A stretch of DNA of 32,000 nt from Candidatus Saccharimonadota bacterium (GTDB taxonomy: Archaea; Nanohalarchaeota; Nanosalinia; Nanosalinales; Nanosalinaceae): contig NZ_CP180230.1 of NCBI RefSeq assembly GCF_047555085.1, forward strand, positions 780,001 through 812,000. The letters run 5' to 3'. The position numbers and the translations under genes were made by a program. Positions 1 through 32,000 of this stretch are shown one piece after another (positions within the stretch are counted from its first letter, which is position 1; each line of letters opens with the position of its first letter). Below the pieces are notes generated by a model that was not told the DNA's origin, ran no database searches, and saw only the letters and a program-made list of their open reading frames with translations.

Positions 1-1
1 T

Positions 2-751
2 TGGGCGGAAGCTATGCGAGAGATCTCCGCAAGACTGGAGGAGATGCCTGGTGAAAGAGGTTATCCTGCTTATCTTGCTTCAAGGCTTGCAGAGTTCTAT
101 GAGCGTGCTGGAAGAGTTGATCCTCTTGCAGATGAGGATCCGGGTTCCGTCTCGATCATCGGAGCTGTTTCACCTCCGGGAGGAGACTTCTCGGAGCCTG
201 TTACTCAGAACACCTTGCGTGTTGTGAAGAACTTCTGGGCTCTGGACAAGGATCTGGCCGAGAAGAGGCACTTCCCATCGATTAACTGGGATGATTCTTA
301 CTCCGGTTATGAGGATATGCTTGCAGACTACTTCAAGGAAGAAGTAGACGACGACTGGAGTGACAACATTCAGAGAATGAAGGATCTGCTTCAGAAGGAC
401 GGCGAGCTTCAGGAGACAGTTCAGCTTGTCGGAAAGGATGCTCTTCCGGAAAGAGAAAGATTGACACTGGAGATTGGAACATTGATAAAGCAGTTCTACC
501 TGCAGCAGAATGCATTCCATCCTGTCGATCAGTACTCTTCACCGCAGAAGACTTTCGACATCCTTGAACTGATCCTGGACTGGGGAGACAACGCTTACCA
601 GGCACTTGAGGACGGTGCAGCTGTACAGGATATCGTTTCACTGGCCTCAAAGAACAGAATCAGTGAGGTCAAAACCGCAGATGACTACGAGGATAAGATA
701 AACGAACTCCGTGACCAGATGGATGAAGAGTTCTCGGAGCTTGAGAGGTGA
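2..751 (+). CDS. atpA: A-type (A1AO/V-type) ATP synthase catalytic subunit A, C-terminal part; the 5' end lies upstream of the window
   Basis: Frame is open to the window edge. Motifs EMPGERGYPAYLASRLAEFYERAG and SIIGAVSPPGGDFSEPVTQNT are typical of A subunits. Directly followed by the B and D subunit genes. Confidence 0.93.
   Translation, partial: WAEAMREISARLEEMPGERGYPAYLASRLAEFYERAGRVDPLADEDPGSVSIIGAVSPPGGDFSEPVTQNTLRVVKNFWALDKDLAEKRHFPSINWDDSYSGYEDMLADYFKEEVDDDWSDNIQRMKDLLQKDGELQETVQLVGKDALPERERLTLEIGTLIKQFYLQQNAFHPVDQYSSPQKTFDILELILDWGDNAYQALEDGAAVQDIVSLASKNRISEVKTADDYEDKINELRDQMDEEFSELER
745..751 (+). promoter_or_regulatory. Shine-Dalgarno-like GAGGTGA for atpB (overlaps the atpA stop)
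   Basis: GAGGTGA lies 10 nt before ATG 762. Similar (A)AGGTGA/AGGAGG elements sit at 2150-2155, 23097-23103, 26255-26261 and 27102-27107, each ahead of an operon-internal or leadered gene. Confidence 0.6.
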
Positions 752-761
752 TTTTTGAACA

Positions 762-2138
762 ATGACACAAGAAGAATACCAGACTATTGAACAGGTGAAA
801 GGACCGCTTGTCTACGTTGAGAAAACCAGAGACGTCGCCTATGGAGACATCGTTGAAATCGAGACTCCGGACGGAGAGGTCAAAAGAGGAGAAGTTCTGG
901 AGACTTCAAAAGACGTCGTAGTAGTCCAGGTGTACGAGGAGACACAGGGAATCGGACAGGATGCACGAGTCCGTTTCATGGACGAAAACGTCAAGATGCC
1001 TGTTACAGAGGATCTTCTGGGAAGAATCCTTGACGGTACCGGAGATCCAATCGACGATGGGCCTGAAGTAATCCCTGAAGAGGAACGAGACATTCAGGGA
1101 GAGGCCATCAACCCTTACTCAAGAGAGCTTCCGGAAGACTTCATCCAGACAGGAATCTCCACGATTGACGTGGCGAACACTCTTGTCAAGGGACAGAAAC
1201 TTCCGATCTTCTCCGGATCAGGCCTTCCGCACAACCGTCTTGCAAAACAGATCGCAAGACAGGCCGATGTAAAAGGAGAGGATACAGATTTCGCAGTAGT
1301 ATTCGCAGGAATGGGAATCACAGAGGAAGAATCTCAGGACTTCATCGAAGAGTTCGAGGACACAGGAGCACTTGAACGCTCCGTAGTTTTCCTGAACAAG
1401 GCCTCTGATCCTGCACCGGAAAGAATAATCACGCCAAGAATGGCGTTGACGACTGCAGAGTTCCTGGCTTTCGAGAAAGGTATGGATGTCCTTGTCATCA
1501 TGACAGACATGACAAACTACTGTAACGCACTGCGAGAAGTATCTGCAGCTAGAGAGGAAGTTCCAGGGCGAAGAGGATATCCTGGATACATGTATACAGA
1601 TCTTGCAGAGCTTTACGAGCGTGCTGGATTGATTGAAGGCGAGGAAGGATCTGTTACACAGCTTCCTATCCTTACAATGCCTAACGACGATCAGACACAT
1701 CCTATCCCAGACCTTACAGGTTACATTACAGAGGGACAGATCGTTGTCGACAGAGATCTCGATAATCAGGGCCTGAATCCGCCTATAGATATCCTTCCAA
1801 GTCTTTCCCGTCTGGAGGACAACGGTATCGGAGAGGGCTACACTCGCGAAGACCACGGAGATGTTTCAGATCAGCTATACGCTCTCTACGCAGAAGGTGA
1901 GAGCCTGAGAGATCTTGTTTCAATTGTAGGAGAAGATGCGTTGAGTGATAGAGATGAGAAAATCCTTAACTTCACACGTGAGTTCGAGAAAAAGTTTGTC
2001 GGACAGGGCTTCGATGAAGATAGAGACATCGAGGACTCCCTTGATCTGGCTTGGGAACTGCTTTCACTTGTTCCTGAAGCCGAGCTGACCAGGATTGACC
2101 CTGAAATGCGTGAGGAGAGGCTCCCTGACGGGGAGTAA
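762..2138 (+). CDS. atpB: A-type ATP synthase subunit B
   Basis: 458 aa with motifs [11 protein letters not shown] and [28 protein letters not shown] Shine-Dalgarno at 745-751. Canonical A-B-D gene order. Confidence 0.96.
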
Positions 2139-2159
2139 ACCTCTCTTTCAGGTGATAAA

Positions 2160-2789
2160 ATGTCACAGGACGTAAAGCCAACACGCAGTGAGGAACTCAG
2201 GCTGAAGGATCGTATCCAGCTCGCTGAAGATGGACACGACATACTTGAGAAAAAGCGGGATGGACTTATCCACGAGTTCATGCAGGTAATCGACGATGCA
2301 AGAGACGTCAACGAAGATCTTGCAAAACTCTACAGCGAGGCCCAGGAAAAACTGCAGCTGGCGAAGATCTACGACGGAGAGGAATCAGTACATGCCAACG
2401 CATTGAACATCACTGATGAGCCTCTTCTGAAGACCGAACAGCAGAATATCATGGGAGTAGTAGTACCTGAGATCGAATCAGTTGAAGTGCAGAAACACGT
2501 CCTGAACAGAGAATACGGCGTAACTTCATCCACTTCACGGATAGACTCAACAGCGGACAAGCACGAAGAGCTTCTCGAGAAAATCGTGGAGGCAGCAGAG
2601 ACACAGACAAAGATTCTCAAGCTGCTTGACGAAATAGAGAAGACAAAGAGGCGTGTGAACGCACTTGAGCACAAGACGATCCCGGAGATGAACTCTGCAC
2701 TGGACTACGTATCCCAGACACTGGAAGAAAATGCGCGAGAGGAAACTTTCCGCATGAAGAAGATCAAGGAAATGCAGGACGAAAGATAG
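2160..2789 (+). CDS. atpD: A-type ATP synthase subunit D (central stalk)
   Basis: N-terminus VKPTRSEELRLKDRIQLAEDGHDILEKKRDGLIHEF matches the D-subunit signature. Long coiled-coil protein located after atpB. AGGTGA at 2150-2155. Confidence 0.9.
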   Translation: MSQDVKPTRSEELRLKDRIQLAEDGHDILEKKRDGLIHEFMQVIDDARDVNEDLAKLYSEAQEKLQLAKIYDGEESVHANALNITDEPLLKTEQQNIMGVVVPEIESVEVQKHVLNREYGVTSSTSRIDSTADKHEELLEKIVEAAETQTKILKLLDEIEKTKRRVNALEHKTIPEMNSALDYVSQTLEENAREETFRMKKIKEMQDER

Positions 2790-2883
2790 ATTTTCCGCAA
2801 GGCCTTCAGATTTCCAAAAATATCCTTTTCTCCCTCTTCTTAATTCAAAAAATAATTTAATAGAGCAGTGGCGATGTTAGCCT

Positions 2884-3165
2884 ATGTCAGATATTTCGGA
2901 GTTAGATGCACAAGAGGCACAAGAACTTGACCAGATACGTCAGGAACTAGAAAACTTGGCAGGAGAGGTAGTAGACCTTACAGAAAATTTGAAAAGCAAC
3001 TTAAAGGAAGCTAAAGACATTCAGGAGAGGCTTGAACAAATCGATACGCAAGTTCAAACTGTTGAAGAACAAACTCAAGAAGAAGCTCAAAGAGAGCAGA
3101 AGAAAGAACAAGAAAGAAGCGCTGGATCAAATATTAATACTGTCGACGTTGGAGATGACTTTTAG
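2884..3165 (+). CDS. Small acidic coiled-coil protein, function unknown
   Basis: 93-aa ORF with E/Q/D-rich heptad-like sequence. AT-rich TATA-like stretch AATAATTTAATA lies about 25-35 nt upstream of the ATG. Composition matches the acidic proteome. Confidence 0.55.
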   Translation: MSDISELDAQEAQELDQIRQELENLAGEVVDLTENLKSNLKEAKDIQERLEQIDTQVQTVEEQTQEEAQREQKKEQERSAGSNINTVDVGDDF

Positions 3166-3191
3166 AGATAAAATAAGAGGATAGAGGATCT

Positions 3192-4445
3192 TTACTTTTC
3201 CTGCTCTTCAGGATTTTCCTCTTCATCTTCTACTTCTTTCTCGGCCTCTTTCTGTAGATTTGGTATTACATCTTCACCAGAGGCCTTCTTTGCGACATCG
3301 TTCGGATTTACGTCAGGAGTTATATCCTCATCCTCTTTCTTCATGTTCTGGATATCTTTCCCGACATCCGAGATGAACTCCCTTGTATCTGACTTGAGCT
3401 CGTAGAGTTCTTTCTCGTCGACTTCATCCATGCTCTTTTCTCTTACCTTGGAGATGATATCATCCCATTTCTGGAACATTTCCATGTGTTCTTCTCCGAA
3501 ATCAAGATTTTCTTCAACTACTTCTGGCAGATCATCTTTGTCCTGAGGCGGTTCTACACCGTTCGACTTGAGCGCTGCAACATTTGCCTTCAGGAAGTTC
3601 TTGTAGTCATCAACTATATCTTTGACTTTCTTCCTTGCACCGAGCTGTGAGACAAGCTTGTGCATCCTGCGGACAAAATCATCTGTCTTCTCCAGGTGCT
3701 CATCCAGGGCCTCTCCTGTGACTTCTTCAGGATTTTTCTCTCCTGTATCACCGAAGTCGTAGATCTCCCTTGCTTTCTCAACGTATTCTTCTTCAAGTAA
3801 ATCTTTCTCCACGAAAAGTTCCTCTAATGTATCAGGAACTTTCTCCTTGCCTGGAGGTGTCTTTCCTACAAGCATGATAGGTGCCTGTCCGGCGTTTGCC
3901 ATGACCTGTTCAAGCTTGTGCGGGATTGAAGACTTCATATTTTTCTCGGCCTTCTTGTAGCCGGTAGCGGCCAGTTTAAGTCTTTTCTTCACCGATTCCT
4001 GGGTGCCAGAGATCTTTCCTCTTTCAAGAAGCCTCTTAGCAGGCATAAACATACCTGTATCGTATACTGCTTCTCCGTTTCTCACTGCTTCTATAGCCAG
4101 AGGCTCCCCCTTTCTGAGAGAATCCCAGAACTCTGTAAGGAACGGGAAGTACTGAATAGTAATTCTTTCATCGACTTCATCTGCCAGAGAAGTTACCTTG
4201 CGTCTTATCTTTTTCTTGGCATCCTTCGGAACATCCTTCTTCAACTTCGTATCATCCAGAATAACAAGCGTATCTATATCGCTTTCTACACCATGTTCTC
4301 CCTGCGGGACACTTCCCCAGACAGCTACAACTTTTACCTTGTCACCAAGTTTTTCATTCAACTGTTTGGAGAACTCTTCAACCGACTCAAACCTTCTTTC
4401 CTGAGACTTTTCCCTCATCTTCTTCATCTTGTCCTTGGAGCTCAT
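3192..4445 (-). CDS. Pol-beta-type nucleotidyltransferase domain protein with long helical and acidic C-terminal extension
   Basis: Motif GSVPQGEHGVESDIDTLVILDD fits the minimal nucleotidyltransferase pattern (GS...DxD). I prefer the ATG at 4445 (MSSKDKMKK...) over the track's TTG at 4532, because GTTTATAA (4480-4487, minus sense) lies about 35 nt upstream of that ATG. Confidence 0.7.
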   Translation of the reverse strand: MSSKDKMKKMREKSQERRFESVEEFSKQLNEKLGDKVKVVAVWGSVPQGEHGVESDIDTLVILDDTKLKKDVPKDAKKKIRRKVTSLADEVDERITIQYFPFLTEFWDSLRKGEPLAIEAVRNGEAVYDTGMFMPAKRLLERGKISGTQESVKKRLKLAATGYKKAEKNMKSSIPHKLEQVMANAGQAPIMLVGKTPPGKEKVPDTLEELFVEKDLLEEEYVEKAREIYDFGDTGEKNPEEVTGEALDEHLEKTDDFVRRMHKLVSQLGARKKVKDIVDDYKNFLKANVAALKSNGVEPPQDKDDLPEVVEENLDFGEEHMEMFQKWDDIISKVREKSMDEVDEKELYELKSDTREFISDVGKDIQNMKKEDEDITPDVNPNDVAKKASGEDVIPNLQKEAEKEVEDEEENPEEQEK

Positions 4446-4530
4446 GGCAGATACACAGACAAGGATTTCCTGACGAGGCTTATAAACCTTAACAAATCCA
4501 TCTACAGAGCCTGAAACCTGATTTAACGGC

Positions 4531-4549
4531 AAAAGAAAAACTGAGGCCT
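4531..4549 (-). terminator. Putative archaeal oligo-T terminator after the 803-aa gene (minus sense TAGAGGCCTCAGTTTTTCTTTT)
   Basis: T-tract TTTTTCTTTT (4531-4540, minus sense) lies immediately downstream of the stop codon and an AGGCCT copy. The next gene has its own TATA-like element. Confidence 0.45.
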
Positions 4550-6961
4550 CTAACGATACTGCTCATTCAGCCATTCGCCAGGCCTTGTGCCGCTGTCAGT
4601 AGCTGCTCTGCCGGAGTAAGTATGATCAAAGCTTTCTGCCTCAAGGAGGCCTTGAAGAGGATCGAAAGCATGTTCCTCTATCTTCGTCCACTCCATGTTG
4701 GTGCTTGATTGATCTAGGCCGAAAAATCTTGCTATCAGGGCCTGTTTCCTGTTCTCGTACTCGCCGTCGTCGGGCACCTTCACCGGATCAAGATCGTCTG
4801 GCTCTACACCAAGCTCTATAAGATCCATAGCGATCCTTGTAGTGTAAAGCGTCTCAGCGTACTCTCCTCCGATCTCGAACATTACTATGCCTTCAGAGTC
4901 TTCACCGTCATTCCTGCAGAATCCTGCATCCACCATCATATACAGGTATCTGTAAAGCACTGTATCCCCTCTCATGAACGGTCCATGCCTGTGGATACCC
5001 TGCTGTTCAAATCCAGGCTTTGTAAGGTGGTAAGTCTTCAGTATATCAGCAAGAGGCTTCTCCTTGTCTATATCAAATCTTTCATCTTCAGCAAGAGCCT
5101 TCTCCTGATCAACAAGCTTCTGCAGCTCGACTTCAGGATCTACACCGAAACTGGCAGTATGCTCAAGGTCGACGGTGAACTTCAGAGGATTACCTCTGTA
5201 CTCTCCCTCCCATTCTTCACTCTCATTCCTGGCAGTAAGATTTACCGCCCTGCATGCCACTGCAATATCTTTAGGCCTCCATAATCGAAGCAAGTTCCCT
5301 GGATCACCGTACATGGCCTCTATATTTGTCTTCAGGCCATGCTTGTTCATCCACTGTATCCACGTCATGTTCTCTTCTGGCTCAAGGCCTGTATTTTTAT
5401 CTCCGTCGAACGTGTCTTCCCTCTGAGTGAACTGCCCCCATAGATAAGTTGCAGCGACAGCAGCAGTAATATCCAGTCTGAACTCTCTATCCGAATCCAG
5501 ACGCTCCTTCACTTCACTGTATTCGCTGAAGTCCAAATCATAATTATTCTCTACAATCGTCTCCCATATGAACTTAGGAGCCTCAAAGCTAGGATGATTC
5601 TCGTATTCTTTATCAGCAACTGTAAGCCAGGCAGGAATAATGTTGTAAAATACCGTCGATTCTTTCTCCATCTGTCTACCTATCTGCGTCCTGTCAATGA
5701 GGCGATGGAAAAGCTCAAGATATTTTTCTTCACCGCTCTCATCCGTATACTCCTCATAGGCCTTCTCATACCCTGAAAATACTTTTTTCGCCTTCTCCCT
5801 CATTGCATCAGTATCCGCCTCATCCGCTATATCCTGCTGCTGTATATCCAGTCTGTTAGTTAATGCAGAGACCTTTGCCTGGAAAGAAAGGCCTTTGTCA
5901 TTCCCATTGCCCGTCCAGAGCTTGTTCATCACAGAATTGATTGCCGAAAGAATCACCTTCCTGTCATTTTCAGAGAGGCCTTCATCATTCTGTATCTCGT
6001 AAACATTCTCGGCTAGCTGACGAACATTAGGCGTTCTACCAGCATATGCCTGAATAGCAGTTTCAAGCACCGCAACAGACTCAGGATCTTCTGTGTTAAC
6101 AGGCCTATGTGACAAGTCTACAGGCCTTTCAAGCTCTTTCTCCCCGATTTTCTCCCTGTAAATCAGAGATATTCCCTGATCTATGCCGGCTCCTGTCTCG
6201 ACAAGAGAGGCCTTGCCTCTTATGTCTCCTGAAAGCCTCTCAGCGTAAAGATCGTTGGCTACTTCGTCTCTGGCGTCACGCCATTCTTTTTCGAACCAGT
6301 CAGAGTACTCTCCGAACATTCCATAAAGCTGTATTGGCTCGATGTTTTCTGCGATAAGGTAGTCAAACAGTAGCTCCATGAACTCTTTATTTCTGTAGAT
6401 ATTAGGTTCCTTGTTATCTTTTACTTCCGTTATAGACTGTCCAAATGGATCAAGAGACTTGTCAGATGCAATCTGCTCTTCCAGAGGCGGTATCTGCTCT
6501 GTTGAAGCATGCATATTGACATAGCCTACGCTGAAGCCGTATTCATCTTCAACCTGTTTTTTGAAGCTTGCTAACTGATCCAGATATCTTGTAAAATATC
6601 TGTGGACAACATTATATCCTGCCTGAACCCCCTGTGCTCTTGTAGCATACGCTGCTCCGTATCCAAGATCTGTATTTCCGTGGAACGTGACATCTACTCC
6701 CAGCTGACCTACAACATTCAGTATATCCTCTCTGTCAACCTGAAAAGTTGCAGGATTCTGTAGAAGAACTTCAAGTACCTCTCCACCTTTCTGGGCCGTA
6801 CTTCCTATTCTCTGGGCTAGAGGGCCTGGCTCCTGCCCTACATCCATTCCTGTCGTGTTACCGACAAGATAGTTCATATCGTTGAACTTCGGGCCGTCTT
6901 CTTCATCCTCATTTTCCTTGAGTTTGTCCATAAAGTTCAGCAGGAAAGACATAGCGATCAC
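4550..6961 (-). CDS. Large (about 800 aa) protein; motif pattern suggests a xylose isomerase/endonuclease IV-like TIM-barrel metalloenzyme with a very large insertion
   Basis: Ordered motifs: VDVTFHGN, VGYVNMHAS, then a long insert, then TNIEAMYG, FTVDLEHTASFGVDPE, TYHLTKPG...GIHRHGPFMRGD and VMFEIGGE. This resembles the H/H/E/DxxH/H/H/E metal-ligand layout of the AP_endonuc_2-type barrel. Start is either GTG 6961 (GTGA overlap with the upstream stop) or ATG 6952. Confidence 0.75.
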   Translation of the reverse strand: MIAMSFLLNFMDKLKENEDEEDGPKFNDMNYLVGNTTGMDVGQEPGPLAQRIGSTAQKGGEVLEVLLQNPATFQVDREDILNVVGQLGVDVTFHGNTDLGYGAAYATRAQGVQAGYNVVHRYFTRYLDQLASFKKQVEDEYGFSVGYVNMHASTEQIPPLEEQIASDKSLDPFGQSITEVKDNKEPNIYRNKEFMELLFDYLIAENIEPIQLYGMFGEYSDWFEKEWRDARDEVANDLYAERLSGDIRGKASLVETGAGIDQGISLIYREKIGEKELERPVDLSHRPVNTEDPESVAVLETAIQAYAGRTPNVRQLAENVYEIQNDEGLSENDRKVILSAINSVMNKLWTGNGNDKGLSFQAKVSALTNRLDIQQQDIADEADTDAMREKAKKVFSGYEKAYEEYTDESGEEKYLELFHRLIDRTQIGRQMEKESTVFYNIIPAWLTVADKEYENHPSFEAPKFIWETIVENNYDLDFSEYSEVKERLDSDREFRLDITAAVAATYLWGQFTQREDTFDGDKNTGLEPEENMTWIQWMNKHGLKTNIEAMYGDPGNLLRLWRPKDIAVACRAVNLTARNESEEWEGEYRGNPLKFTVDLEHTASFGVDPEVELQKLVDQEKALAEDERFDIDKEKPLADILKTYHLTKPGFEQQGIHRHGPFMRGDTVLYRYLYMMVDAGFCRNDGEDSEGIVMFEIGGEYAETLYTTRIAMDLIELGVEPDDLDPVKVPDDGEYENRKQALIARFFGLDQSSTNMEWTKIEEHAFDPLQGLLEAESFDHTYSGRAATDSGTRPGEWLNEQYR

Positions 6962-8607
6962 TTCATAGTAAACAGGCCGAAGCCGATCTTCAGATCATAG
7001 TAGTACCTGAACTTCATCTCATGCTCCATATCAGCCCATGCTGTGCTTTCATCAACCAGATATTTATCCACCTGGCCTGTAAAGAGTTTAAGCTTCCTTT
7101 CTATACCCTGATAGAAATCAGGTCCGCCGCTTTCCGAATCCTCGTGGAATTCAGTGTCCAAGACTTCATCTAGGGCCTTTAACTGATCATCATTGAATAC
7201 AACATCCAGTTCATCCAGTCCGTCTTCCACCCTTCTGATACGTGAAGATACCTCCAGAGGGATTTGCTCGCCAATCTCTTCTTCTAGGGCCTCTCTCAGC
7301 TCCCTGACCGACATATCTTTTTCATGCCTGGCATCTTTCAGTTTCTTTCCTTTCTTGGTATCAATATTTCCTTTGTAGTCCTGAAGCTTCAGTTTCAAGT
7401 CTTTCTCAACTTCATCAATACGTTCCTTGAAAATATTCTCAAAGACAAACTTGTCGACAATCGCCGGATGCCAGAAAACCTTCGCTACAGAAGGCCCCTG
7501 CTTCGGATCAGTCGGCTCCTCACCACCGGCCAAGTTCGCATGCACCTGATGCAGAAAAATCACTCTGTAATGAGTGATCTCATCCTCATCATCCGTTACA
7601 ACTATGTCTTCTCCGGTATTCTTCAGGCCTCTGTAAATTATATATTCTCTTTCAGTAAACAGCGAGCTGTATCCCCGTAGCTGTATATGCCTCCGCATGT
7701 CAGAGGCCAGTTCCTCCTGAGACTTGTTGTTAATCATCTCCATATCCCGTACGTACGGCTCCAAATAATCCTCAGTCTCTTCTATAGCTCTCTCAATTCC
7801 TTTCAGCTCTCCTTTCAGCTCTTCAAGCTTCCTCTGAATCTCACTGCCGTACATGTCCTTCCATTTCTCGTACATCGCATACTTCTTCTTCAGAATCGCC
7901 TTAACGTTCGCTGGAAGATGAGCAAGCTTTCCATCCTCCAGATCCTCTTCATCCTTATCCTCGTACTTCTTTGCCTTATCCTCGGCAGACATCAGATCCT
8001 CCGTGGAATCCATCTCGTTGAAGTCAGCGACTATAGAAGGATACAGATTCTGATCACGCAGGAACTTAAGAGAAGCTCTATCGCCTCCCTGGCCTCCCGA
8101 AGCACCGGCTCCATCAACCAGTTCGACGAAGTCAGCCTTTATCCGGGTTTCGTTCCCTTCCTCGATGTCCTCTATGCGGGAACGGAGCTTCCTTATATCA
8201 TGTTCAAGCATATGCTTCTGTTTCAGAAGCTCCGAAAGATTACGCTTAGTCTCTTTTACACGTTGCTCCGCATTCTGATGCTGCTGCATCAACTGATTAT
8301 GCAACTGGCTGTCAGGAGAGACATAAACACTTTCCTCAACCTTTTCGGCAGTATAGTTAAGATCATCAGCGAACTTGTCAACAGAATTAATAACCATCCC
8401 ATAAGGGACTCCTCCACGTGTATTGGACTTTACCTTGATCGACTTCCACTGCTCTCCCATCAGACCTTTTATCGATCCTGGACCATCATCACTCCTTACA
8501 TCCTCCAAGGTCTCGATCTTGCCGCTGCGTACAGCTTTTTCCCACGGCGAACCGTTAGAGGTCTTGAAAACATATCCAAAACCCGGATGATCTTTTGAGT
8601 CTGACAC
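6958..8607 (-). CDS. 549-aa acidic coiled-coil protein, function unknown; first gene of a two-gene operon
   Basis: Long ORF with acidic composition. GTG start at 8607 with ATTTTAAG (8633-8640, minus sense) about 26 nt upstream. Central heptad-rich regions and a Gly-rich patch GAGASGGQGGD. Stop overlaps the start of the next gene. Confidence 0.78.
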   Translation of the reverse strand: MSDSKDHPGFGYVFKTSNGSPWEKAVRSGKIETLEDVRSDDGPGSIKGLMGEQWKSIKVKSNTRGGVPYGMVINSVDKFADDLNYTAEKVEESVYVSPDSQLHNQLMQQHQNAEQRVKETKRNLSELLKQKHMLEHDIRKLRSRIEDIEEGNETRIKADFVELVDGAGASGGQGGDRASLKFLRDQNLYPSIVADFNEMDSTEDLMSAEDKAKKYEDKDEEDLEDGKLAHLPANVKAILKKKYAMYEKWKDMYGSEIQRKLEELKGELKGIERAIEETEDYLEPYVRDMEMINNKSQEELASDMRRHIQLRGYSSLFTEREYIIYRGLKNTGEDIVVTDDEDEITHYRVIFLHQVHANLAGGEEPTDPKQGPSVAKVFWHPAIVDKFVFENIFKERIDEVEKDLKLKLQDYKGNIDTKKGKKLKDARHEKDMSVRELREALEEEIGEQIPLEVSSRIRRVEDGLDELDVVFNDDQLKALDEVLDTEFHEDSESGGPDFYQGIERKLKLFTGQVDKYLVDESTAWADMEHEMKFRYYYDLKIGFGLFTMK

Positions 8608-8632
8608 ATTTGAAGTATGGTATTAAATACTA

Positions 8633-8640
8633 CTTAAAAT
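8633..8640 (-). promoter_or_regulatory. TATA-like box (ATTTTAAG, minus sense) for the 549-aa/803-aa operon
   Basis: AT-rich octamer about 26 nt upstream of the GTG at 8607, within a 110-nt divergent intergenic region. Confidence 0.4.
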
Positions 8641-12568: not shown

Positions 12569-13746
12569 CGCAGATTATAGGCCGTTACACCAAGTATAAT
12601 AACCGAGATAAGGCCTGCGGCGAAGAATGAAGCATTGACACTCCAGATCGAAGATACTGTTCCTGCCAGAATCGGGCCTATTACCTGTCCTGAATGCTTG
12701 AAAAGTTCATTGAATCCTACCATTTCGCTTTCGACTTCGTCAGGTACTCTTGAGTCGAACATTGCGTGTATAGCAGGCGACATACCTGATGATAGAAGGC
12801 GTGCGATGAAGAAGAATGCACCAATCACCAGAGTGCCGGAGAGGAAGTTCATGGCTACAAGAACAGGCGTCAAAAACAGGCTGAGAAGGCCTATAGTTTT
12901 GAGCTGTCCTATTCTGTCAGCAAGTTCTCCGAAGATGAACTGGAAGGCCTTTGGTAGAGCCGCGACACCGAAAATCAGTCCCATAACCGCAAAGTCTCCT
13001 GAAACCTTGTCAAGCAAGAGCGGGATGGCTACCCAGTAGAAAGAGAAGATTATAGAGTACAGGAATACCAGGCTGAAAGGCAGTCTCAGGTGCTTCCAGT
13101 TGTCTTTGAGGTGATGCCAGTCATCTGAATACGTTTTTCTATGTAGAACTTCCTCTACAGAGTCTACAAGTGATTCTTTAGTGTTTATACCGATGTAGGA
13201 GAGATAAATCAAGACTGCAAGTGTTGAAGTGAATACCCATAGGCCGAAAGTTAGTGAAAAGCCACGAGATGCTATCAGAAATCCTCCTATAACAGGACCT
13301 ATTATCACTGCAAGATTAACGCCCAGTAGAAACACTGAAACAGTTTCAGACTCCACATCATCGTCAGAACTTTTCAGGGAGAGGCTCCAGCTGCCATTCC
13401 AGATAAAGGCCTTGCAGAGACCTTCAGATATTTTTCCAAGGACCAGCATCACCGGTATAGCAAAGTAGTAGAACAGAGGAGGGAATGCTGCCGTGATAAG
13501 GCCCAGAAAGATAACAACTTTTTCTCCTGCTCTCTGAACAAGATTACCTGTAGGAATATCAAGCATTATAGTAAGTAAAGCAGGTATCGACGTGGCTATA
13601 CCGACCAGAAATACGCTCATATGTTGCTCGAAATATATCGGCAGGAAGTTCCATACCGTGCTCCGCCCCAGCCATCCAACAAGAAAAACCAGGGAGAGAT
13701 ACTTCGCTATCCGAGGTACTCTATCTATCTCCACAGTAAAATACAA
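12565..13746 (-). CDS. MFS-type transporter
   Basis: About 12 hydrophobic helices and a loop GNLVQRAGEK resembling MFS motif A. Start is uncertain: TTG 13746 or GTG 13734, with no early ATG. Confidence 0.82.
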   Translation of the reverse strand: MYFTVEIDRVPRIAKYLSLVFLVGWLGRSTVWNFLPIYFEQHMSVFLVGIATSIPALLTIMLDIPTGNLVQRAGEKVVIFLGLITAAFPPLFYYFAIPVMLVLGKISEGLCKAFIWNGSWSLSLKSSDDDVESETVSVFLLGVNLAVIIGPVIGGFLIASRGFSLTFGLWVFTSTLAVLIYLSYIGINTKESLVDSVEEVLHRKTYSDDWHHLKDNWKHLRLPFSLVFLYSIIFSFYWVAIPLLLDKVSGDFAVMGLIFGVAALPKAFQFIFGELADRIGQLKTIGLLSLFLTPVLVAMNFLSGTLVIGAFFFIARLLSSGMSPAIHAMFDSRVPDEVESEMVGFNELFKHSGQVIGPILAGTVSSIWSVNASFFAAGLISVIILGVTAYNLR

Positions 13747-13749
13747 AAT

Positions 13750-14007
13750 CTAGTGCGTTATAAAACCTTCTTGGCCTTCATCTTCATCCTGTTCCTCATC
13801 AGAGGCCTCTTCATTACTTTCCACCAGCTCCTTCTTCGTCTCTTCCTTCAAACGGTTATACCTCTTCTCTGCAGGAGTCTTCTTTTCAACATCTGCTTCT
13901 TCCTGTTTGACCTCGTTGTAACGCTCCCTGCTTGGATCCTCATCCTCTGTATCAGAGGCCTCGGAATCATTCTTGCTATTATTTATGGCTTCAAGAAAGT
14001 CGTTCAA
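13750..14007 (-). CDS. Highly acidic small protein (85 aa), unknown; the only available start is a TTG
   Basis: ORF with extreme D/E content. TTGA overlap with the upstream ORF's stop. Stop is 3 nt before the MFS gene start. It could be part of a frameshifted longer gene (see findings). Confidence 0.45.
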   Translation of the reverse strand: MNDFLEAINNSKNDSEASDTEDEDPSRERYNEVKQEEADVEKKTPAEKRYNRLKEETKKELVESNEEASDEEQDEDEGQEGFITH

Positions 14008-14267
14008 GCTTCTTCCACCTCGACATCCCTCTTCTTTTTCCTTTTCCTGCCGACGAACGGGATTCTGTCAACAAGAGATACGAAGTCACGGACTGTTTCA
14101 GAGGCCTCCTCAACATTTTCAAAGGCCTGCTCTATACTTTCCGAGGACTTCACCCATGAGGCAATTATCCTGTCAATTCTATACAGCAGAATCGCTAGAA
14201 AGACGAGTACAACCGCTGTAAGTAGCTTAACGATTATATTAAGGCCGGCGACAGGATCTTCTATCAT
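14004..14267 (-). CDS. Small single-pass membrane protein (87 aa) with a basic RKRKKKR patch
   Basis: ATG start with ATATAAAA (14291-14298, minus sense) about 24 nt upstream. TM helix IIVKLLTAVVLVFLAILLY. Confidence 0.55.
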   Translation of the reverse strand: MIEDPVAGLNIIVKLLTAVVLVFLAILLYRIDRIIASWVKSSESIEQAFENVEEASETVRDFVSLVDRIPFVGRKRKKKRDVEVEEA

Positions 14268-14290
14268 AAGACTTGTACTGTTCTGAAAGA

Positions 14291-14382: not shown

Positions 14383-14724
14383 ATGGTTGAAGTACCTGAA
14401 GACGTTGAAATTGCAGATCTGCCTTTCACCCACGCAAGAATCAAGAGAATGGTAAGAGAAGAGGCCTCAGAAGGCCAGTACGTCCGTTCAAATGTTTATT
14501 ACGGATTGAATCTCCTGCTAGGTGAAATCGCAGACGAAGTAATCGAAAAAATGATGGACACCGAGGCAGCGTACGTCGAGAAACATGATCTTGATCGCGC
14601 CGCAAGGAAATACGAGAAAGTGGAGAACATCATCCAGGAAAAAGAGAGAGTATCACGAAAACTGGATGCACTGGCAGCGGATATCGAAAAGCTTTCGAGA
14701 GACGTACAGCAGGCCGACCACTAG
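14383..14724 (+). CDS. Histone-fold (CBF/NF-Y/archaeal histone family) protein with C-terminal coiled-coil extension
   Basis: LPFTHARIKRMVRE resembles the lP.aRIKkImk alpha-1 signature. A long alpha-2 (VYYGLNLLLGEIADEVIEKMMD) and a short alpha-3 (HDLDRAARKY) follow, then about 40 aa of heptad-like tail. GCTTAAAA at 14343-14350. Confidence 0.6.
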   Translation: MVEVPEDVEIADLPFTHARIKRMVREEASEGQYVRSNVYYGLNLLLGEIADEVIEKMMDTEAAYVEKHDLDRAARKYEKVENIIQEKERVSRKLDALAADIEKLSRDVQQADH

Positions 14725-14752
14725 AGGCCTCAACTTTTCCCCTCTATTTTTA
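14725..14752 (+). terminator. Putative oligo-T terminator after the histone-fold gene (AGGCCTCAACTTTTCCCCTCTATTTTTA)
   Basis: T-tracts directly follow the stop TAG 14722-14724 and an AGGCCT copy. Confidence 0.4.
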
Positions 14753-14762: not shown

Positions 14763-15509
14763 CTAAACAAGATTTTCAAGGCCTTTTACTTCAGGAGCAT
14801 CCTGACTGTAGCCCGGGAATCTAGGCATCTCGACCTCAAGATCTTTAGGCCCGGCAGTGTAGACGACTGTTTCCTCATCGCGTCCTATACAGACTACTCC
14901 TGTAACCCCGTCCACGTCGACAGGATTCAAAGTATTTTCTGACTGGAACTCTCTGTACTGTTCAGAGGCCTCCGGATCACCGGTGTACGTGAAAAATATC
15001 TGGAATCCAAGCTGATCCTCGAAGTCGCTGTAGGCCTGAAGCAGTTCATCTGATTCGATGTACCTGTTTTCAAATCCTGTGTCCATACGGACGTTCTCAC
15101 TTCGGAACTCGGGATGAGTTCTCAGGCCTTGATCCACATCTCTGACCTCTTCAAGACATGCATCAAGATTGGCAAGTTTCAGCGGAGCCGAGAAAAAATC
15201 AACATTATCAGAATCTGCTCCGAAGAACTCCCTGTAAAACTCGGCGTGCCTTTCACCTTTACTGGCTGACACAGTATTTTTTCTACTGTCCAGAACACCA
15301 CCATCAAGCTGTCCGCCATCTCTGAACACTCCTGCGATCTGGAGATTGTCCAGGCGAGGCATCAACCGTTCAACGCTGGAGGCCTCAACTACTCTTCCCT
15401 GTCCTGTTACATCCAGTGCAATCTCAGCCTCATCGTGTGCATAAGAATTCTCTACAACCCATTCGAAGAGCTCATCAGTATCAGGCCTCTCTACAGTCAT
15501 CTCCGGCAT
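14763..15509 (-). CDS. Acidic hypothetical protein (about 248 aa)
   Basis: Long ORF with acidic composition and no motif I recognise. I prefer the ATG at 15509 over the track's TTG at 15515. Confidence 0.68.
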   Translation of the reverse strand: MPEMTVERPDTDELFEWVVENSYAHDEAEIALDVTGQGRVVEASSVERLMPRLDNLQIAGVFRDGGQLDGGVLDSRKNTVSASKGERHAEFYREFFGADSDNVDFFSAPLKLANLDACLEEVRDVDQGLRTHPEFRSENVRMDTGFENRYIESDELLQAYSDFEDQLGFQIFFTYTGDPEASEQYREFQSENTLNPVDVDGVTGVVCIGRDEETVVYTAGPKDLEVEMPRFPGYSQDAPEVKGLENLV

Positions 15510-15588
15510 ATTCAAGAATGCTTTACTTACTGTGAAGTATCTTTCGCAGCGGTGAGAGATTAAAAGATTTCACTGATAAAACACCGTT

Positions 15589-18195: not shown

Positions 18196-18534
18196 ATGAC
18201 AGGCCTGGATCGTACCTACGGTGATCTTCTTGATGCAGCCGGAGATGATGTTGCAGATTATGTAAGAATTGAGCATGAGAGAGGCCGTGGCGAGGGAACT
18301 GCAGTTATTGATCCCGATATAGGAGGCTACGGCACTGACAGCGTCGATTCTCTTTCAGGCCTTGCTGTGGAAGTTGCTGACGGCCTCAGTGATTTTTATC
18401 AGGGCGTTCACATGTATGATGTTGAGGGAGCGGATGATAGAAGTGCTGAGGAGGCCTTGGAAGAGGTTATACATGATTTGACTCCTGATAGTCCTTCCAG
18501 AAATAACATGTTTGCTGATGCTGCGCTGGAGTAA
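18196..18534 (+). CDS. Acidic hypothetical protein (112 aa)
   Basis: ATG preceded by GCTTAAAA at 18163-18170, about 26 nt upstream, consistent with a leaderless or short-leader transcript. Acidic composition. Confidence 0.6.
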   Translation: MTGLDRTYGDLLDAAGDDVADYVRIEHERGRGEGTAVIDPDIGGYGTDSVDSLSGLAVEVADGLSDFYQGVHMYDVEGADDRSAEEALEEVIHDLTPDSPSRNNMFADAALE

Positions 18535-20854: not shown

Positions 20855-20886
20855 AGAGAATATTTTGGAGGCCTGATTTTATGGAT

Positions 20887-23477: not shown

Positions 23478-23480
23478 ATC

Positions 23481-24674
23481 ATGAATAAAGAACTACCCGA
23501 AGTGAATGTAGGCCTTGTAGGGCACGTTGATCACGGAAAGACAACTCTTACCAGAGCTCTCTCCGGTAAATGGACTGATGAGCACAGCGAAGAACTGAAG
23601 AAAGGCATCACGATCAGGCTTGGATACGCTGACGTCACATACTACAGAGACGATGAAGGAAACCTGAACGTTGATGGAGACGGCGAGACAGTTCGTTCGC
23701 TTTCTCTTGTTGATGCTCCAGGCCACGAAACATTGATGGCTAACGTGCTTTCCGGTGCCGCAATCATGGACGGTGCTGTTCTAATTATTGCCGCTAACGA
23801 AGAGTGTCCTCAGCCACAGACGCGCGAACATCTGGCAGCTCTTGACATCATAGGAATAGAGAACATAGTTATTGTCCAGAACAAGATCGATCTCGTGGAC
23901 AAGGAGCAGGTACGTGAAAATTATAACGAGATAAAAGACTTTGTCGAAGGCACAGTAGCCGAAGACGCACCTATCATTCCTGTATCGGCACAGCACGAAA
24001 TCAATATAGATGCTCTTCTGGAGGCAGTTGATGAGGAAATCCCTACACCAGAAAGAGATCTGGAAGCCGATCCAAAGATGCTTGTCGCACGATCATTCGA
24101 TATCAACAAGCCAGGACAGCTACCTGAAGAAGTCAGCGGAGGAGTAGTTGGCGGAAGCCTCACACGTGGAAAACTTGAGCCCGAAGATGAAATAGAACTG
24201 AAACCAGGCCGCAAAGTCGGCGAGGAAAAATGGGAGACAGTCACAACAACTGTAGAAAATATAATCCACGGAAACGATATCGTGGACGAAGGAAGGCCTG
24301 GAGGCCTTCTAGGAGTCGAAACAAAGCTTGATCCATCGATGACGAAGTCCGATGGCCTTGAAGGAAACGTTTTAGGCCTTAAGGGGACTCTTCCAGATAC
24401 AACTTACAATATAGAGCTAGAGGCAGAGCTCATGGAAAGTCTTGTTGGATCTGAAGACGATAAAGAGATTGAGAACATCAAGGAGCACGAGCCTTTGATG
24501 ATCAACGTAGGTACAGGGAAGTCAGCAGGCTTTGTTACACAGGCAGGTAAGAACGTCAAGCTCGACTTAAAAGTGCCGATCTGCGCTGAGGAAGGCGATA
24601 GAATAGCTATTTCACGCCAGATAGGTTCTAGATGGCGCTTAATCGGTCACGGCAAGATTACAGGCGTTGAATGA
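23481..24674 (+). CDS. eif2g: Translation initiation factor aIF2 gamma subunit
   Basis: G motifs GHVDHGKTTL, DAPGHE and NKIDL, with domain II/III architecture. 397 aa. Confidence 0.96.
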   Translation: MNKELPEVNVGLVGHVDHGKTTLTRALSGKWTDEHSEELKKGITIRLGYADVTYYRDDEGNLNVDGDGETVRSLSLVDAPGHETLMANVLSGAAIMDGAVLIIAANEECPQPQTREHLAALDIIGIENIVIVQNKIDLVDKEQVRENYNEIKDFVEGTVAEDAPIIPVSAQHEINIDALLEAVDEEIPTPERDLEADPKMLVARSFDINKPGQLPEEVSGGVVGGSLTRGKLEPEDEIELKPGRKVGEEKWETVTTTVENIIHGNDIVDEGRPGGLLGVETKLDPSMTKSDGLEGNVLGLKGTLPDTTYNIELEAELMESLVGSEDDKEIENIKEHEPLMINVGTGKSAGFVTQAGKNVKLDLKVPICAEEGDRIAISRQIGSRWRLIGHGKITGVE

Positions 24675-24720
24675 AAAATAGTAGATTTTTAACTAACCAT
24701 AACAAGGTTGTATCTGTACA

Positions 24721-27097: not shown

Positions 27098-27115
27098 TTT
27101 CAGGAGGCAGATAAA

Positions 27116-29032: not shown

Positions 29033-29099
29033 AAATTCTTCAACGATAGCGGAGCTTAAAATACTATTTACTTGAAACTTCAGGCCTCAAAGATTCTAC

Positions 29100-29477: not shown

Positions 29478-29487
29478 ACTTGGGGAG

Positions 29488-29522
29488 AGGCCTGAGAATG
29501 AATTTTTCTACCACTGCTTTTT
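29488..29522 (+). terminator. Putative terminator region after the PIN gene (AGGCCT, then AATTTTTCT and GCTTTTT)
   Basis: AGGCCT lies 11 nt after the stop at 29475-29477 and is followed by two T-tracts. This region may overlap the rpo7 promoter (TTTTTAAG 29518-29525). Confidence 0.35.
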
Positions 29523-29570
29523 AAGAATTAACACCGACTGGTTTACTGTTCCATAGAGGTAGAATTTATA

Positions 29571-30146: not shown

Positions 30147-30148
30147 AT

Positions 30149-30337
30149 ATGGCAGAAAAAGCTTGTTCCGAATGCCACAGACTTGTAGAAGAGTCAACAG
30201 AATGCCCTATCGACAAGAACAACGATTTAAGAAGTAACTGGAGCGGCTTAGCCGTTATATACGATCCAGAAGACTCAGAAATCGCAGACAAACTAGGCGT
30301 AAGCGTCGCAGGACGATACGCGATCAGTGTAAGGTGA
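30149..30337 (+). CDS. spt4: Transcription elongation factor Spt4 (RpoE'')
   Basis: 62 aa with zinc-ribbon-like CSEC...CPID and the conserved WSGLAVIYDPEDSEIADKLGV...GRYAISV. Located right after rpo7. Confidence 0.85.
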   Translation: MAEKACSECHRLVEESTECPIDKNNDLRSNWSGLAVIYDPEDSEIADKLGVSVAGRYAISVR

Positions 30338-30348
30338 AAAAATAATTT

Positions 30349-30789
30349 ATGGAAGTTCAAATTGAATCAGTACGAGAAAATCCTCTTCTGGAACGCAGAC
30401 AGGTAACACTGGCTGTAGACCATGAAGACGATTCAACCCCAAGTAGAGAAGATATCAAAAGCAGATTCGCTGCTGAAAACGCAGTCGACGAAGAAAAAAT
30501 CGAAGTAGGCACAATCCACACAGGATTCGGCCGAAACTCTTCGAAAACAGAGCTTAAAGTCTACGAAGAATTCGATTACAGCGAAGATCTTGAAGAAGAG
30601 GCCTCTACAACTTCAGAGACAGTTGAAGTAACTGAAGAATACGAGGAAATCGTCGCAGGAACAATCACAGATGCAAAAGACGCAATCAACGATCTTGAGG
30701 ATCCTGACTACAAGGCCTTGATCGAGGCAGAAGTAGAGAACAAAAACCGCACAACACTAGTTGACTGGCTTGAAGGCCAGATGGAGTGA
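30349..30789 (+). CDS. rps24e: 30S ribosomal protein S24e with about 45-aa C-terminal extension
   Basis: ENPLLERRQVTLAVDHEDDSTPSREDIKSRFAAE...IHTGFGRNSSKTELKVYE matches S24e. The extra acidic C-terminal segment ends in ...KNRTTLVDWLEGQME. Confidence 0.9.
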   Translation: MEVQIESVRENPLLERRQVTLAVDHEDDSTPSREDIKSRFAAENAVDEEKIEVGTIHTGFGRNSSKTELKVYEEFDYSEDLEEEASTTSETVEVTEEYEEIVAGTITDAKDAINDLEDPDYKALIEAEVENKNRTTLVDWLEGQME

Positions 30790-30795
30790 TTCAAG

Positions 30796-30942
30796 ATGGG
30801 AAAGAACGCTAACGTAGCAATCTACGAGAAGTACAACGAAGACGGGACATTCAACGGAGAAAAATGCCCTGTCTGCGGAAGCTTCCTGGCAGAACACGAC
30901 GACAGGAAAAGCTGCGGCAAGTGCGGCTACACACAGCACTAG
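30796..30942 (+). CDS. rps27ae: 30S ribosomal protein S27ae (48 aa; below the ORF-track cutoff)
   Basis: My translation is [48 protein letters not shown], with a C4 zinc ribbon. Canonical position after rps24e. Confidence 0.9.
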
Positions 30943-31016
30943 GGCCTCTAAATTTACAGGCCTCTCAATCTTTTCATCATATCTCTTAACGTTTTTCTCA
31001 CAAACATTTTCTCATA

Positions 31017-31997
31017 ATGAAAGTTCTTGGTATTGAGTCCACTGCTCATACGCTTGGAGTAGGGATAGTAGATGAGGATGATGTCCTTGCCAACAAGAAG
31101 TCGATGTACAAGCCTGAGGAAGGAGGTATTCATCCACGGAAGGCCTCAGAGCATCATTATCAGCATGCCTTGGAGGTATTGAATAATGCTCTTGATAAAG
31201 CGGGCCTTGAAGAGGAGGATCTGGATGCCGTGGCTTTTGCTCAGGGGCCTGGTATACCGCAGTGTCTGGAGATAGGGGCTGTTATGGCGCGGAGTATTGC
31301 GGAGCGTTACGATCTGAAGTTGATCGGTGTCAATCACTGTTTATCTCATATCTCGATCGGCACCAGAACGACTGAAGCTGAAAATCCGACTACGCTGTAC
31401 GTTTCTGGCGGGAACAGCCAGATAATCGAGTACAGGAATGGACGTTACAGGATAATTGGAGAGACTCTGGATATCGCTCTGGGAAATGCCTTGGACAAGT
31501 TCGCTAGAAAACTTGGATATCCGCATCCCGGCGGACCTGAGATCGAAAAGTTAGCGGAGAAGACTGACGATATAATTGAATTAAGTTATCCCATCAAGGG
31601 CATGGATTTCTCTTTTTCAGGCCTGACAACAGAGGCCGAGAGAAAGATCGGAGAAGTATCGGATGAGGTGCTTGCCAACAGTTTCCAGGAACACGCATAC
31701 TCTGCCGTGGTGGAGGCACTGGAAAGAGCGATGGCGCAGGAAGGCAGCAACGAGGCCCTTCTCACAGGAGGAGTAGCGATGAACTCCCGGCTTAGAGAGA
31801 TGGTGGAAACTATGTGCGAGCAGCGAGATGCAGAAGCTTACTTCCCTCCTGCCGAGTTCTGTATGGACAACGGAGCCATGATCGCACACCAGGGACTTGT
31901 TGAACTGAAAGACGGAAGAGGAACAAAGATAGATGATTCAGGTAAGAGGCCTGACTGGAGGCCTGACGAGGTGGAAGCAACATGGATAGAGAAATAG
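31017..31997 (+). CDS. kae1: tRNA N6-adenosine threonylcarbamoyltransferase Kae1 (stand-alone, not fused to Bud32)
   Basis: Motifs GIESTAHTLGVGIV, NHCLSHI, YVSGGNSQ, LTGGVAMNSRLREM and CMDNGAMIA. Stop at 31995-31997. Confidence 0.95.
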   Translation: MKVLGIESTAHTLGVGIVDEDDVLANKKSMYKPEEGGIHPRKASEHHYQHALEVLNNALDKAGLEEEDLDAVAFAQGPGIPQCLEIGAVMARSIAERYDLKLIGVNHCLSHISIGTRTTEAENPTTLYVSGGNSQIIEYRNGRYRIIGETLDIALGNALDKFARKLGYPHPGGPEIEKLAEKTDDIIELSYPIKGMDFSFSGLTTEAERKIGEVSDEVLANSFQEHAYSAVVEALERAMAQEGSNEALLTGGVAMNSRLREMVETMCEQRDAEAYFPPAEFCMDNGAMIAHQGLVELKDGRGTKIDDSGKRPDWRPDEVEATWIEK

Positions 31998-32000
31998 AGA

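Follow-up and report, generated by a model that had tools for sequence, protein, structure and literature searches.

AGGCCT, Apparently a Highly Iterated Palindrome in a Subset of Nanohaloarchaeota

For thirty years, highly iterated palindromes (HIPs) have lacked an explanation, and work on them has been confined to a single phylum, the cyanobacteria. The conservation of the first of them, HIP1 (GCGATCGC), between genomes has been read as selection, and, since its methylated form raises transformation efficiency, it has been interpreted as a signal for uptake or recombination. Other palindromes of the class, termed alternate HIPs, have a scattered occurrence; one of them is the hexamer GGCGCC of Calothrix PCC 7103, with an observed-to-expected ratio (O/E) of at least about 15. 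They are found together with a methyltransferase of the corresponding specificity, and a ratchet based on methyl-directed repair has been put forward to explain them. Here, we describe the hexamer AGGCCT in a 32-kb stretch of the genome of “Ca. Nanosalina sp. VS9-1” (Nanohaloarchaeota, 45.7% G+C), referred to as the window, and in the equivalent regions of its relatives. The Nanohaloarchaeota are small-genome symbionts of haloarchaea, and in some of them AGGCCT is apparently a highly iterated palindrome, i.e., a genome-wide signature at the level of the DNA as found in cyanobacteria. We covered 32 kb of VS9-1 and 5 to 21 kb of each relative, so that “genome-wide” is an extrapolation from these loci. 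In the regions sampled, it is established that the signal is real, maintained, DNA level, and restricted to certain lineages.

The likeness to HIP1 and GGCGCC is considerable. All are short, G+C-rich palindromes in at least 15-fold excess that occur in every reading frame and also in spacers, are conserved beyond neutral expectation, and have their one-base deviants at the outer positions, and all are sporadic, lineage-specific words. AGGCCT sites pass the conservation tests used for HIP1, in agreement with the original prediction (made from the letters of the window), which had likened the pattern to HIP1 and to uptake sequences. There are differences, however. The host is an archaeal DPANN symbiont, while the class was described from cyanobacteria, and the word is another one and denser (ca. 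3,800 versus 500 to 2,500 per Mb). The core GGCC alone is not favored in AGGCCT, whereas the inner CGATCG of HIP1 is a methylase site. Finally, the same word recurs in three separate lineages, and its cognate methyltransferase is only putative.

The excess does not depend on how the expectation is calculated. From a manual scan, 115 to 125 copies had been estimated (one per ca. 265 bp) against some 6 expected, an approximately 20-fold excess, and these figures hold: a programmatic count gives 121 copies in 32,000 bases (one per 264 bp, or 3.8 per kb) against 6.4 expected from base composition, i.e., an O/E of 18.8, and against 7.7 ± 2.6 in dinucleotide-preserving shuffles (maximum of 18 in 100). 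AGGCCT is the most frequent hexamer, more than 2-fold ahead of the next ones, which are its own overlaps GGCCTC (55) and GAGGCC (54). When synonymous codons were shuffled within 31 genes, preserving protein sequence and codon usage, 12.6 ± 3.3 copies resulted (maximum of 23 in 500) versus the 108 observed there. The absence of any special signal, with the count arising from composition, codon or amino acid usage, or dispersed repeat copies, would find support in the maximal-order (order 4) Markov model, which predicts 118.9 copies in the window. Yet this model reproduces the count because it is conditioned on AGGCC (162) and GGCCT (160), enriched pentamers that are themselves the signal, and models of order 0 to 1 give 6 to 8. 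The match means that both flanks of GGCC act almost independently and does not make the excess compositional. Thus, of the two backgrounds suggested as a check in the original prediction, the codon shuffle gave a clear answer in favor of the signal, while the maximal-order Markov test was ill posed. Besides, spacers are 60-fold over expectation, syntenic relatives of similar composition have only 1 to 2 times the expected number, nothing is conserved beyond one base on either side of the sites, and the excess is present in independent assemblies (NCBI, ENA, JGI, and Logan). An origin without a special signal can be discarded with near certainty. The depletion of one-mismatch neighbors that had been suggested was not clear in the window at this sample size, with AGACCT and AGGTCT at 4 to 5 copies versus the 10 to 13 of an order-1 expectation.

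The sites were found in all three reading frames (18/35/55 in the 31 large genes), in genes of both strands, and in spacers, as had been claimed; 30 of the 35 genes carry at least one. With two minus-strand genes (13750 to 14267) and those of Spt4 and S27e recognized, 112 sites are coding and 9 fall in true spacers, which total 1,505 nucleotides with 35% G+C and for which 0.15 sites would be expected. Each frame can be illustrated by a plus-strand example: the pair of sites reading Arg-Pro (AGG CCT) in the KRPDWRPDE stretch of Kae1/TsaD (31947 to 31964), the Gly-Leu of MTGLD (18201 to 18206; xxA-GGC-CTx, the commonest coding context), and the xAG-GCC-Txx site at 14462 to 14467 (Glu/Lys/Gln-Ala-Ser/Tyr/Phe and so on). 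All the coordinates originally quoted were confirmed, including those of the nine spacer sites, save for a shift of one base (29081 is really 29082). The statement that most GGCC tetramers are flanked as A-GGCC-T was also correct (121 of 218). In contrast, the bases outside the hexamer had been described as unbiased and palindromic octamers as close to the 25% expected by chance, and neither stands. T at -1 and A at +6 are depleted (9 to 12% in the window and 6 to 10% in relatives) and G/C is favored, the commonest octamer is GAGGCCTC, and palindromic octamers amount to 32%. No sequence is shared by the sites beyond this single base on either side, apart from weak composition effects up to about ±4, and therefore they are not a repeat family. 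A dispersed repeat similar to repetitive extragenic palindromes or miniature inverted-repeat transposable elements was rejected on the same grounds, as the copies have only the core word in common.

There are 2 to 13 sites per 2-kb bin, and the gaps between them are approximately exponential (coefficient of variation, 1.03; Kolmogorov-Smirnov P = 0.12), that is, spacing is near random, with no periodicity or regularity at the scale of 32 kb; the periodic distribution described for HIPs has a scale of 10 to 90 kb. The closest pair (AGGCCTNNAGGCCT, 24294 to 24307, plus strand, with sites at 24294 and 24302) is in the gene of the translation initiation factor 2 gamma subunit (aIF2-gamma, 23481 to 24674). 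Within genes or spacers, the sites have no preferred position. This bears on the possibility of a signal acting in RNA, given that a palindrome places AGGCCU in every transcript, where it could serve in processing, modification, or binding. Most genes carry the word and so do short, probably transcribed, spacers, as such a motif would require. However, a signal in RNA need not be palindromic (a property of just 64 of the 4,096 hexamers), no positional preference was detected, no RNA family matched in the window, and no RNA role has been found for HIP1. We consider this explanation very improbable.

A different view of the signal is obtained from what we call permissive positions, those at which synonymous codons could spell AGGCCT in a given protein. 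There are three permissive contexts: Arg-Pro, Gly-Leu after a residue with a codon that can end in A, and Glu, Lys, or Gln followed by Ala before a residue with a codon that can start with T. In the window, 108 of 136 permissive positions are realized (79%). Every one of the 18 Arg-Pro pairs is AGGCCT, although Arg is in general encoded by AGG in 22% of cases and Pro by CCT in 50%. Gly-Leu is spelled GGCCT in 69 of 80 cases, 55 of them preceded by A, and 35 of 52 xAG-GCC-Txx tripeptides are realized. Most of the unrealized positions would require rare Leu (TTR) or Gln (CAA) codons. The availability of these contexts also accounts for the stretch of lowest density (14 to 4532, three sites in 4.5 kb), which comprises V-type ATPase subunit and nucleotidyltransferase genes. 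These have 0 to 4 synonymous-permissive positions each, 7 in total, of which 3 are realized, so that sites are few because permissive dipeptides are scarce, and the idea that these genes are foreign DNA was discarded.

Codon choice, analyzed in the window and two relatives, follows a graded pattern. Gly is encoded by GGC in 19% of cases as a baseline, in 18% where only the GGCC core would be completed, in 50 to 56% with one outer base in place, and in 92% with both. The equivalent figures for Ala as GCC are 15%, 13%, 32 to 38%, and 97%. In other words, bare GGCC gains nothing, while a five-of-six match gains part of the advantage. In the A_CT context, GGA drops from 52% to 2%, and GGT is the least depleted alternative (5%). 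Across the strongly enriched genomes, full sites are found at 11 to 24 times expectation, sites with one flank at 1.1 to 2.9 times, and bare GGCC at 0.3 to 0.8 times, the latter being 0.2 to 0.7 times in non-enriched relatives. One-base deviants are mainly at the outer positions, and inner variants are at or below expectation, a pattern partly forced by coding.

Proteins have also been affected. At the window sites, outgroups often have other residues, with Lys-Pro or Glu-Pro for Arg-Pro and Gly-Ile for Gly-Leu, and tripeptide identity to the outgroups is 24 to 31% at sites versus a background of 41% (frames 1 and 2). The different residues in outgroups and the below-average conservation indicate that the DNA signal has changed protein sequences. 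Arg-Pro is found at 1.6 to 2.0 times expectation, permissive contexts are ca. 45% more frequent, and the less conserved a gene is, the more densely it tends to carry sites (rho = -0.44, P = 0.06). The signal thus survives the codon shuffle, extends to spacers, and overrides both codon preference and amino acid identity, which sustains the initial view of a DNA-level rather than an amino acid or codon effect. We also came across two aIF2-gamma proteins of close relatives (P0005 and P0002) that differ by Gly-Arg-Pro versus Gly-Lys-Pro and are otherwise 98% identical; this is how the gain or loss of one AGGCCT (AGG CCT versus AAG CCT) between near-identical strains looks at the protein level.

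All this recalls the uptake signal sequences (USS) of Pasteurellaceae and the DNA uptake sequences (DUS) of Neisseriaceae, which double the frequency of the peptides they encode, fall preferentially at poorly conserved residues, and have dialects proper to each lineage. AGGCCT is likewise a hyperabundant coding word that raises the peptides it encodes, falls at poorly conserved residues, and comes in lineage dialects. USS and DUS serve as tags of self DNA, which for AGGCCT is a proposal. A similar drive might operate here with no methylation involved, if an uptake or transfer receptor preferred DNA with AGGCCT and conspecific fragments were recombined, spreading the sites; such a molecular drive has been modeled for both bacterial families. 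It would account for the raised peptides, the poorly conserved residues and less conserved genes, the graded gain of partial matches, and the flank dialects (see below); moreover, environmental DNA uptake for nucleotides has been proposed in nanohaloarchaea, and it is currently argued that HIP1, too, acts as a signal for uptake. On the other hand, known uptake sequences have 9 to 12 nucleotides, are asymmetric, appear about once per kb, and belong to a competence apparatus that is known, as opposed to a 6-nucleotide palindrome at 3.8 per kb in archaea for which no competence machinery or receptor is known. The spacing of AGGCCT is not more even than random, and a mobile enzyme accounts more readily than a receptor that evolves vertically for the presence of one and the same hexamer in separate lineages. 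We regard uptake drive as unlikely, albeit as one of the more serious rivals.

Comparison of enriched genomes indicated that the sites are actively kept. For pairs with 85 to 89% nucleotide identity, AGGCCT is unchanged in 78 to 87% of cases versus 41 to 55% for hexamers of the same composition (Fisher P from 9e-9 to 6e-17), and for deeper pairs, in 50 to 68% versus 14 to 24%. Even at third codon positions with the same amino acid, identity between enriched genomes is 68 to 87% inside the motif versus 50 to 58% outside, while against non-enriched outgroups, there is no difference (39 to 42% inside and 43 to 47% outside). The spacer sites are conserved among enriched relatives as well. The one upstream of a PIN-domain gene (29082 to 29087) is AGGCCT in all six enriched relatives that align there (L081, L207, L209, L082, L205, and L210), and that between the S27e and Kae1 genes (30958 to 30963) is kept in the five for which the alignment extends over it. 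The site directly after the stop codon of a gene coding for a 113-amino-acid protein (14725 to 14730) is present in L082 and L205, L081 having AGGCCG, and the one between the photolyase and TrkA genes (20869 to 20874) is present in L207 and L082, with AGGCCC in L081. Turnover is nevertheless considerable: of the 94 sites aligned among three genomes, 32 are common to all, and 38 occur in a single one. When close genomes differ, each of the six positions is affected to a similar extent, by transitions and transversions alike.

The last observation is relevant for the mechanism initially suggested, an orphan cytosine methyltransferase combined with a Vsr-like repair of T:G to C:G that would drive near-sites toward AGGCCT. 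Systems of this kind exist. Dcm/Vsr of Escherichia coli and M.MthTI with Mig.Mth have a methylated C within a short palindrome and a biased T:G repair that shifts the frequencies of the site and its neighbors; the latter pair, encoded by plasmid pFV1, is in fact an archaeal GGCC methyltransferase with a T:G mismatch glycosylase. The four inner bases of AGGCCT are G/C, and AGACCT and AGGTCT are somewhat below their order-1 expectation, as this drive would predict. However, T:G repair acts on one methylated C per strand with small shifts, and it can neither set the outer A/T, convert GGA or GGG, nor yield a saturation close to 80%. In E. coli, the effect of Vsr on word frequencies is modest, nowhere near 20-fold or such saturation. 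AGGTCT should be the rarest neighbor, yet GGT is the least depleted codon; bare GGCC gains nothing; and the AGGCCT pattern includes six positions, transversions, and amino acid changes. The suggestion therefore fits poorly, and we give it very little probability.

The enrichment is patchy along the phylum. Seven syntenic genomes, those of the window and of the six relatives listed above, have an O/E of 15 to 23.5, and they are monophyletic within Nanosalina with a bootstrap of 100 in a ten-protein tree (our trees were built by neighbor joining from at most ten proteins). Their sister group, L083 and L211 (bootstrap of 99), has only 1.0 to 1.8 times the expected number, and Nanosalina J07AB43 has 1.9 times. 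Sister lineages with the same gene order and similar G+C and proteins are in general at 1 to 2 times. For orthologous genes, 73 to 87% of permissive positions are realized in the enriched clade versus 3 to 16% in L083, L084, and L001 and 21% in L002, with 5.0 to 5.2, 3.2 to 3.5, and 4.5 permissive positions per kb, respectively. Two other groups are strongly enriched. The SG9 group contains L215 (20.5 times, with 82% of permissive positions realized) and L291 (20.4 times), which shares an identical aIF2-gamma with Nanohaloarchaea archaeon SG9. Within the Nanohalovita group are L218 (11.3 times) and L290 (12.9 times), the latter a locus of the complete genome of the cultivated “Ca. Nanohalovita haloferacivicina” BNXNv (CP107255.1, 803104 to 824294). 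These two groups were never recovered as one clade (0 of 100 bootstraps), and the SG9 group has a sister that is enriched only 3 times. A fourth lineage, L002 (L224; LKMP01000002.1, the same as LFCJ01000007.1), reaches 7 times. Cultivated Nanohalococcus occultus is at 1.1 times, and about 75 other archaea listed by a scan of genome collections have AGGCCT at 2.7 times at most. The preferred flanked form also varies, being GAGGCCTC in the Nanosalina clade and AAGGCCTT in the SG9 and Nanohalovita groups. Intermediate values were seen in L002/L224 (7 times), L212 (3 times), and L213 (4 times), where 12 to 21% of the permissive positions are realized; these lineages could be gaining or losing the signal.

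A patchy and recurrent trait is to be expected if its cause is transferred horizontally or is frequently lost. The non-enriched sister of the enriched Nanosalina clade, the separateness of the other enriched lineages, and their differing flanks suggest that the cause is mobile. That the word is a palindrome suggests that a symmetric protein recognizes it in double-stranded DNA. A force that acts on all six positions, includes transversions and spacers, goes against residue conservation, and is graded rules out composition, codon usage, or repeats as the cause. Two kinds of process are left, namely, selection on the density of sites and a biased fixation of the word as a whole.

One such selection would be for the sites of an abundant dimeric DNA-binding protein involved in nucleoid structure, segregation, or condensation. 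The palindrome suggests a dimer, the graded and roughly log-additive flank effects resemble binding energy, and the sites are conserved in genes and spacers alike; for HIP1, selection related to chromosome structure has been concluded. Still, the sites are neither regularly spaced nor clustered over the 32 kb, sister lineages dispense with them despite having the same gene order, and near-saturation goes beyond the apparent requirements of a structural role. Vertical inheritance is usual for chromatin proteins, at variance with the patchy trait, and no candidate was found, the histone-like 113-amino-acid protein (14383 to 14724) being present in non-enriched relatives too. This makes a structural protein rather improbable.

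We lean, tentatively and with less than even confidence, toward a horizontally acquired system that recognizes AGGCCT, most likely a methyltransferase, with marked sites favored as a self label or through a methyl-directed bias. Type II systems specific for AGGCCT are indeed known; Alcanivorax borkumensis SK2, for instance, has an active one that methylates AgGCcT (at the cytosine) and cleaves the word. StuI-type systems have the identical palindromic word, read by a symmetric enzyme, and are horizontally mobile. According to this reading, a lineage would acquire by horizontal transfer a sequence-specific DNA-recognizing system of two-fold symmetry and AGGCCT specificity, the likeliest candidate being a StuI-type DNA methyltransferase with or without partners. 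In the carrier genomes, completed sites would be preferentially fixed and existing ones protected, possibly by a methyl-directed bias in repair or recombination or, alternatively, because densely marked sites would label self DNA in recombination, uptake, or nuclease discrimination. Each carrier lineage would drift to near-saturation. Recognition would have to be graded, so that a site lacking one outer base might keep part of the advantage and bare GGCC none.

Several results weigh against a methyltransferase. Scans of the poorly annotated proteins of the window with Pfam, PADLOC, and NCBIfam gave no DNA methyltransferase, restriction, or Vsr-type repair family, and scans for C5 and N4/N6 methyltransferase signatures gave nothing credible in the window or in any enriched locus. 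The published inventory of BNXNv, enriched 12.9 times at the locus studied, features no type II cytosine methyltransferase, its sole entry of this kind being a type III Mod/Res system. Between close genomes, the sites have no positional excess of C-to-T changes, the footprint of 5-methylcytosine. A. borkumensis, with its active AGGCCT restriction-modification, has only 1,674 sites per genome, with no hyperabundance, and therefore a methyltransferase alone is insufficient. Hosts of StuI-type systems are neutral or avoid the word, unlike the 19-fold excess seen here. The published methyl-directed ratchet model predicts no advantage for five-of-six sites and saturates near one site per kb, versus one per 265 bp here. 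Finally, the genome-wide extent in VS9-1 comes from extrapolating 32 kb. As to the bacterial comparison, the 1,674 sites correspond to ca. 0.5 per kb, about twice the expectation for the genome size and G+C content of A. borkumensis.

Two candidate genes were dismissed. A 109-amino-acid open reading frame (ORF) of L215 has one methyltransferase motif only. In the window, a 250-amino-acid orphan gene (14763 to 15515, minus strand) has 8.0 sites per kb, the second highest among the genes, with 6 of 6 permissive positions realized. It is present in L081 and L082 and has two database relatives and no family match; it was rejected as the cause given its absence at the syntenic position of the enriched L205, and its structure model was unusable (mean confidence score [pLDDT] of 29). 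Together with another orphan at 18196 to 18534 (plus strand), it is fast evolving and found only within the enriched Nanosalina clade, and both have the highest site densities of the window (8 to 9 per kb).

The self-label variant of a mobile recognition module can be taken a step further, although we consider this extension improbable. A dense label might allow ectosymbionts that scavenge DNA to tell their own chromosome from host or environmental DNA. AGGCCT is found at 3.8 per kb in the window versus 0.11 per kb in pooled haloarchaeal loci, a contrast of ca. 30-fold, and import of environmental DNA for nucleotides has been proposed in nanohaloarchaea; a dense self label would therefore have an obvious, if so far only suggestive, use. 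The haloarchaeal figure derives from 11 loci (L035 to L074, 176 kb) with 20 AGGCCT versus 59 expected (0.34 times), and the deficit in these potential hosts is possibly a simple result of their G+C-rich third codon positions. The best-known word that marks self DNA for the recombination and nuclease machinery of the cell is Chi, also overrepresented, but it is an asymmetric octamer, oriented with replication, at about one per 5 kb, and read by RecBCD; we know of no archaea with RecBCD. If the proposal were true, a mobile self-label module would explain how the identical word became saturated at least three times, and the problem of distinguishing food from self would have reshaped the codon use and the protein sequences of a symbiont.

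Whatever the cause, we found no report of AGGCCT or of any iterated palindrome in nanohaloarchaea in the searchable literature, which is incomplete. AGGCCT provides a signal comparable to HIPs in another domain, and one stronger per kilobase. The enriched genomes and their non-enriched sisters, with a shared gene order, are a natural experiment in which the gain can be dated on the tree and the causal gene found by phylogenetic profiling. Both the enriched BNXNv, cultured with its host, and the non-enriched Nanohalococcus occultus are available in culture, which makes methylation, binding, and uptake directly testable. By overriding codon preference and changing residues, as from Lys or Glu to Arg before Pro, the signal represents a measurable nonprotein force on proteome evolution in a genome of roughly 1 Mb. 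At a practical level, AGGCCT can be used as a lineage marker in binning and to recognize DNA of recent acquisition, and it distorts codon-based or k-mer-based inference on these genomes.

Regarding gene content, the window proteins are strongly acidic and include V-type ATPase subunits, aIF2-gamma, S6e, S24e, S27e, Spt4, RpoE', Kae1, TrkAH, and photolyase, a set that matches other Nanohaloarchaeota. The 221-amino-acid ORF at 13621 to 14286 (plus strand) is almost certainly spurious, as it overlaps the two small acidic genes of the minus strand (13750 to 14267; 85 and 87 amino acids), which agree with the gene calls in relatives and contain four AGGCCT. The 113-amino-acid protein (14383 to 14724, plus strand) is 83 to 97% identical in all the nanohaloarchaeal relatives sampled; its N-terminal half resembles a histone fold and is followed by a coiled coil, Pfam giving just a weak coiled-coil match. 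At 4550 to 8607 (minus strand), there are two adjacent large proteins (803 and 549 amino acids) with no Pfam or NCBIfam match, beside a nucleotidyltransferase-domain protein that has weak PADLOC matches to candidate defense families.

A scan of viral contigs for clustered AGGCCT produced at least 120 hits, mostly chance matches or tandem repeats. Among them was an A+T-rich contig (L086, IMGVR_UViG_3300029432_000018) with 13 AGGCCT in 3.6 kb, mostly as AAGGCCTT. Its proteins are not acidic, and it was rejected as a relative from a halophile; it is a separate case of an iterated palindrome. Another viral contig (L171, 10.8 kb, 52.5% G+C) is rich in GGCCT, with 22 AGGCCT and 34 CGGCCT. Other words deviate as well within the window. 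CTAG is strongly depleted (46 versus 141 expected from dinucleotides); CCTAGG, GGCGCC, TGCGCA, and CCGCGG have 0 copies, with 2 to 6 expected for each; and GTATAC and GATATC are overrepresented 3 to 5 times.

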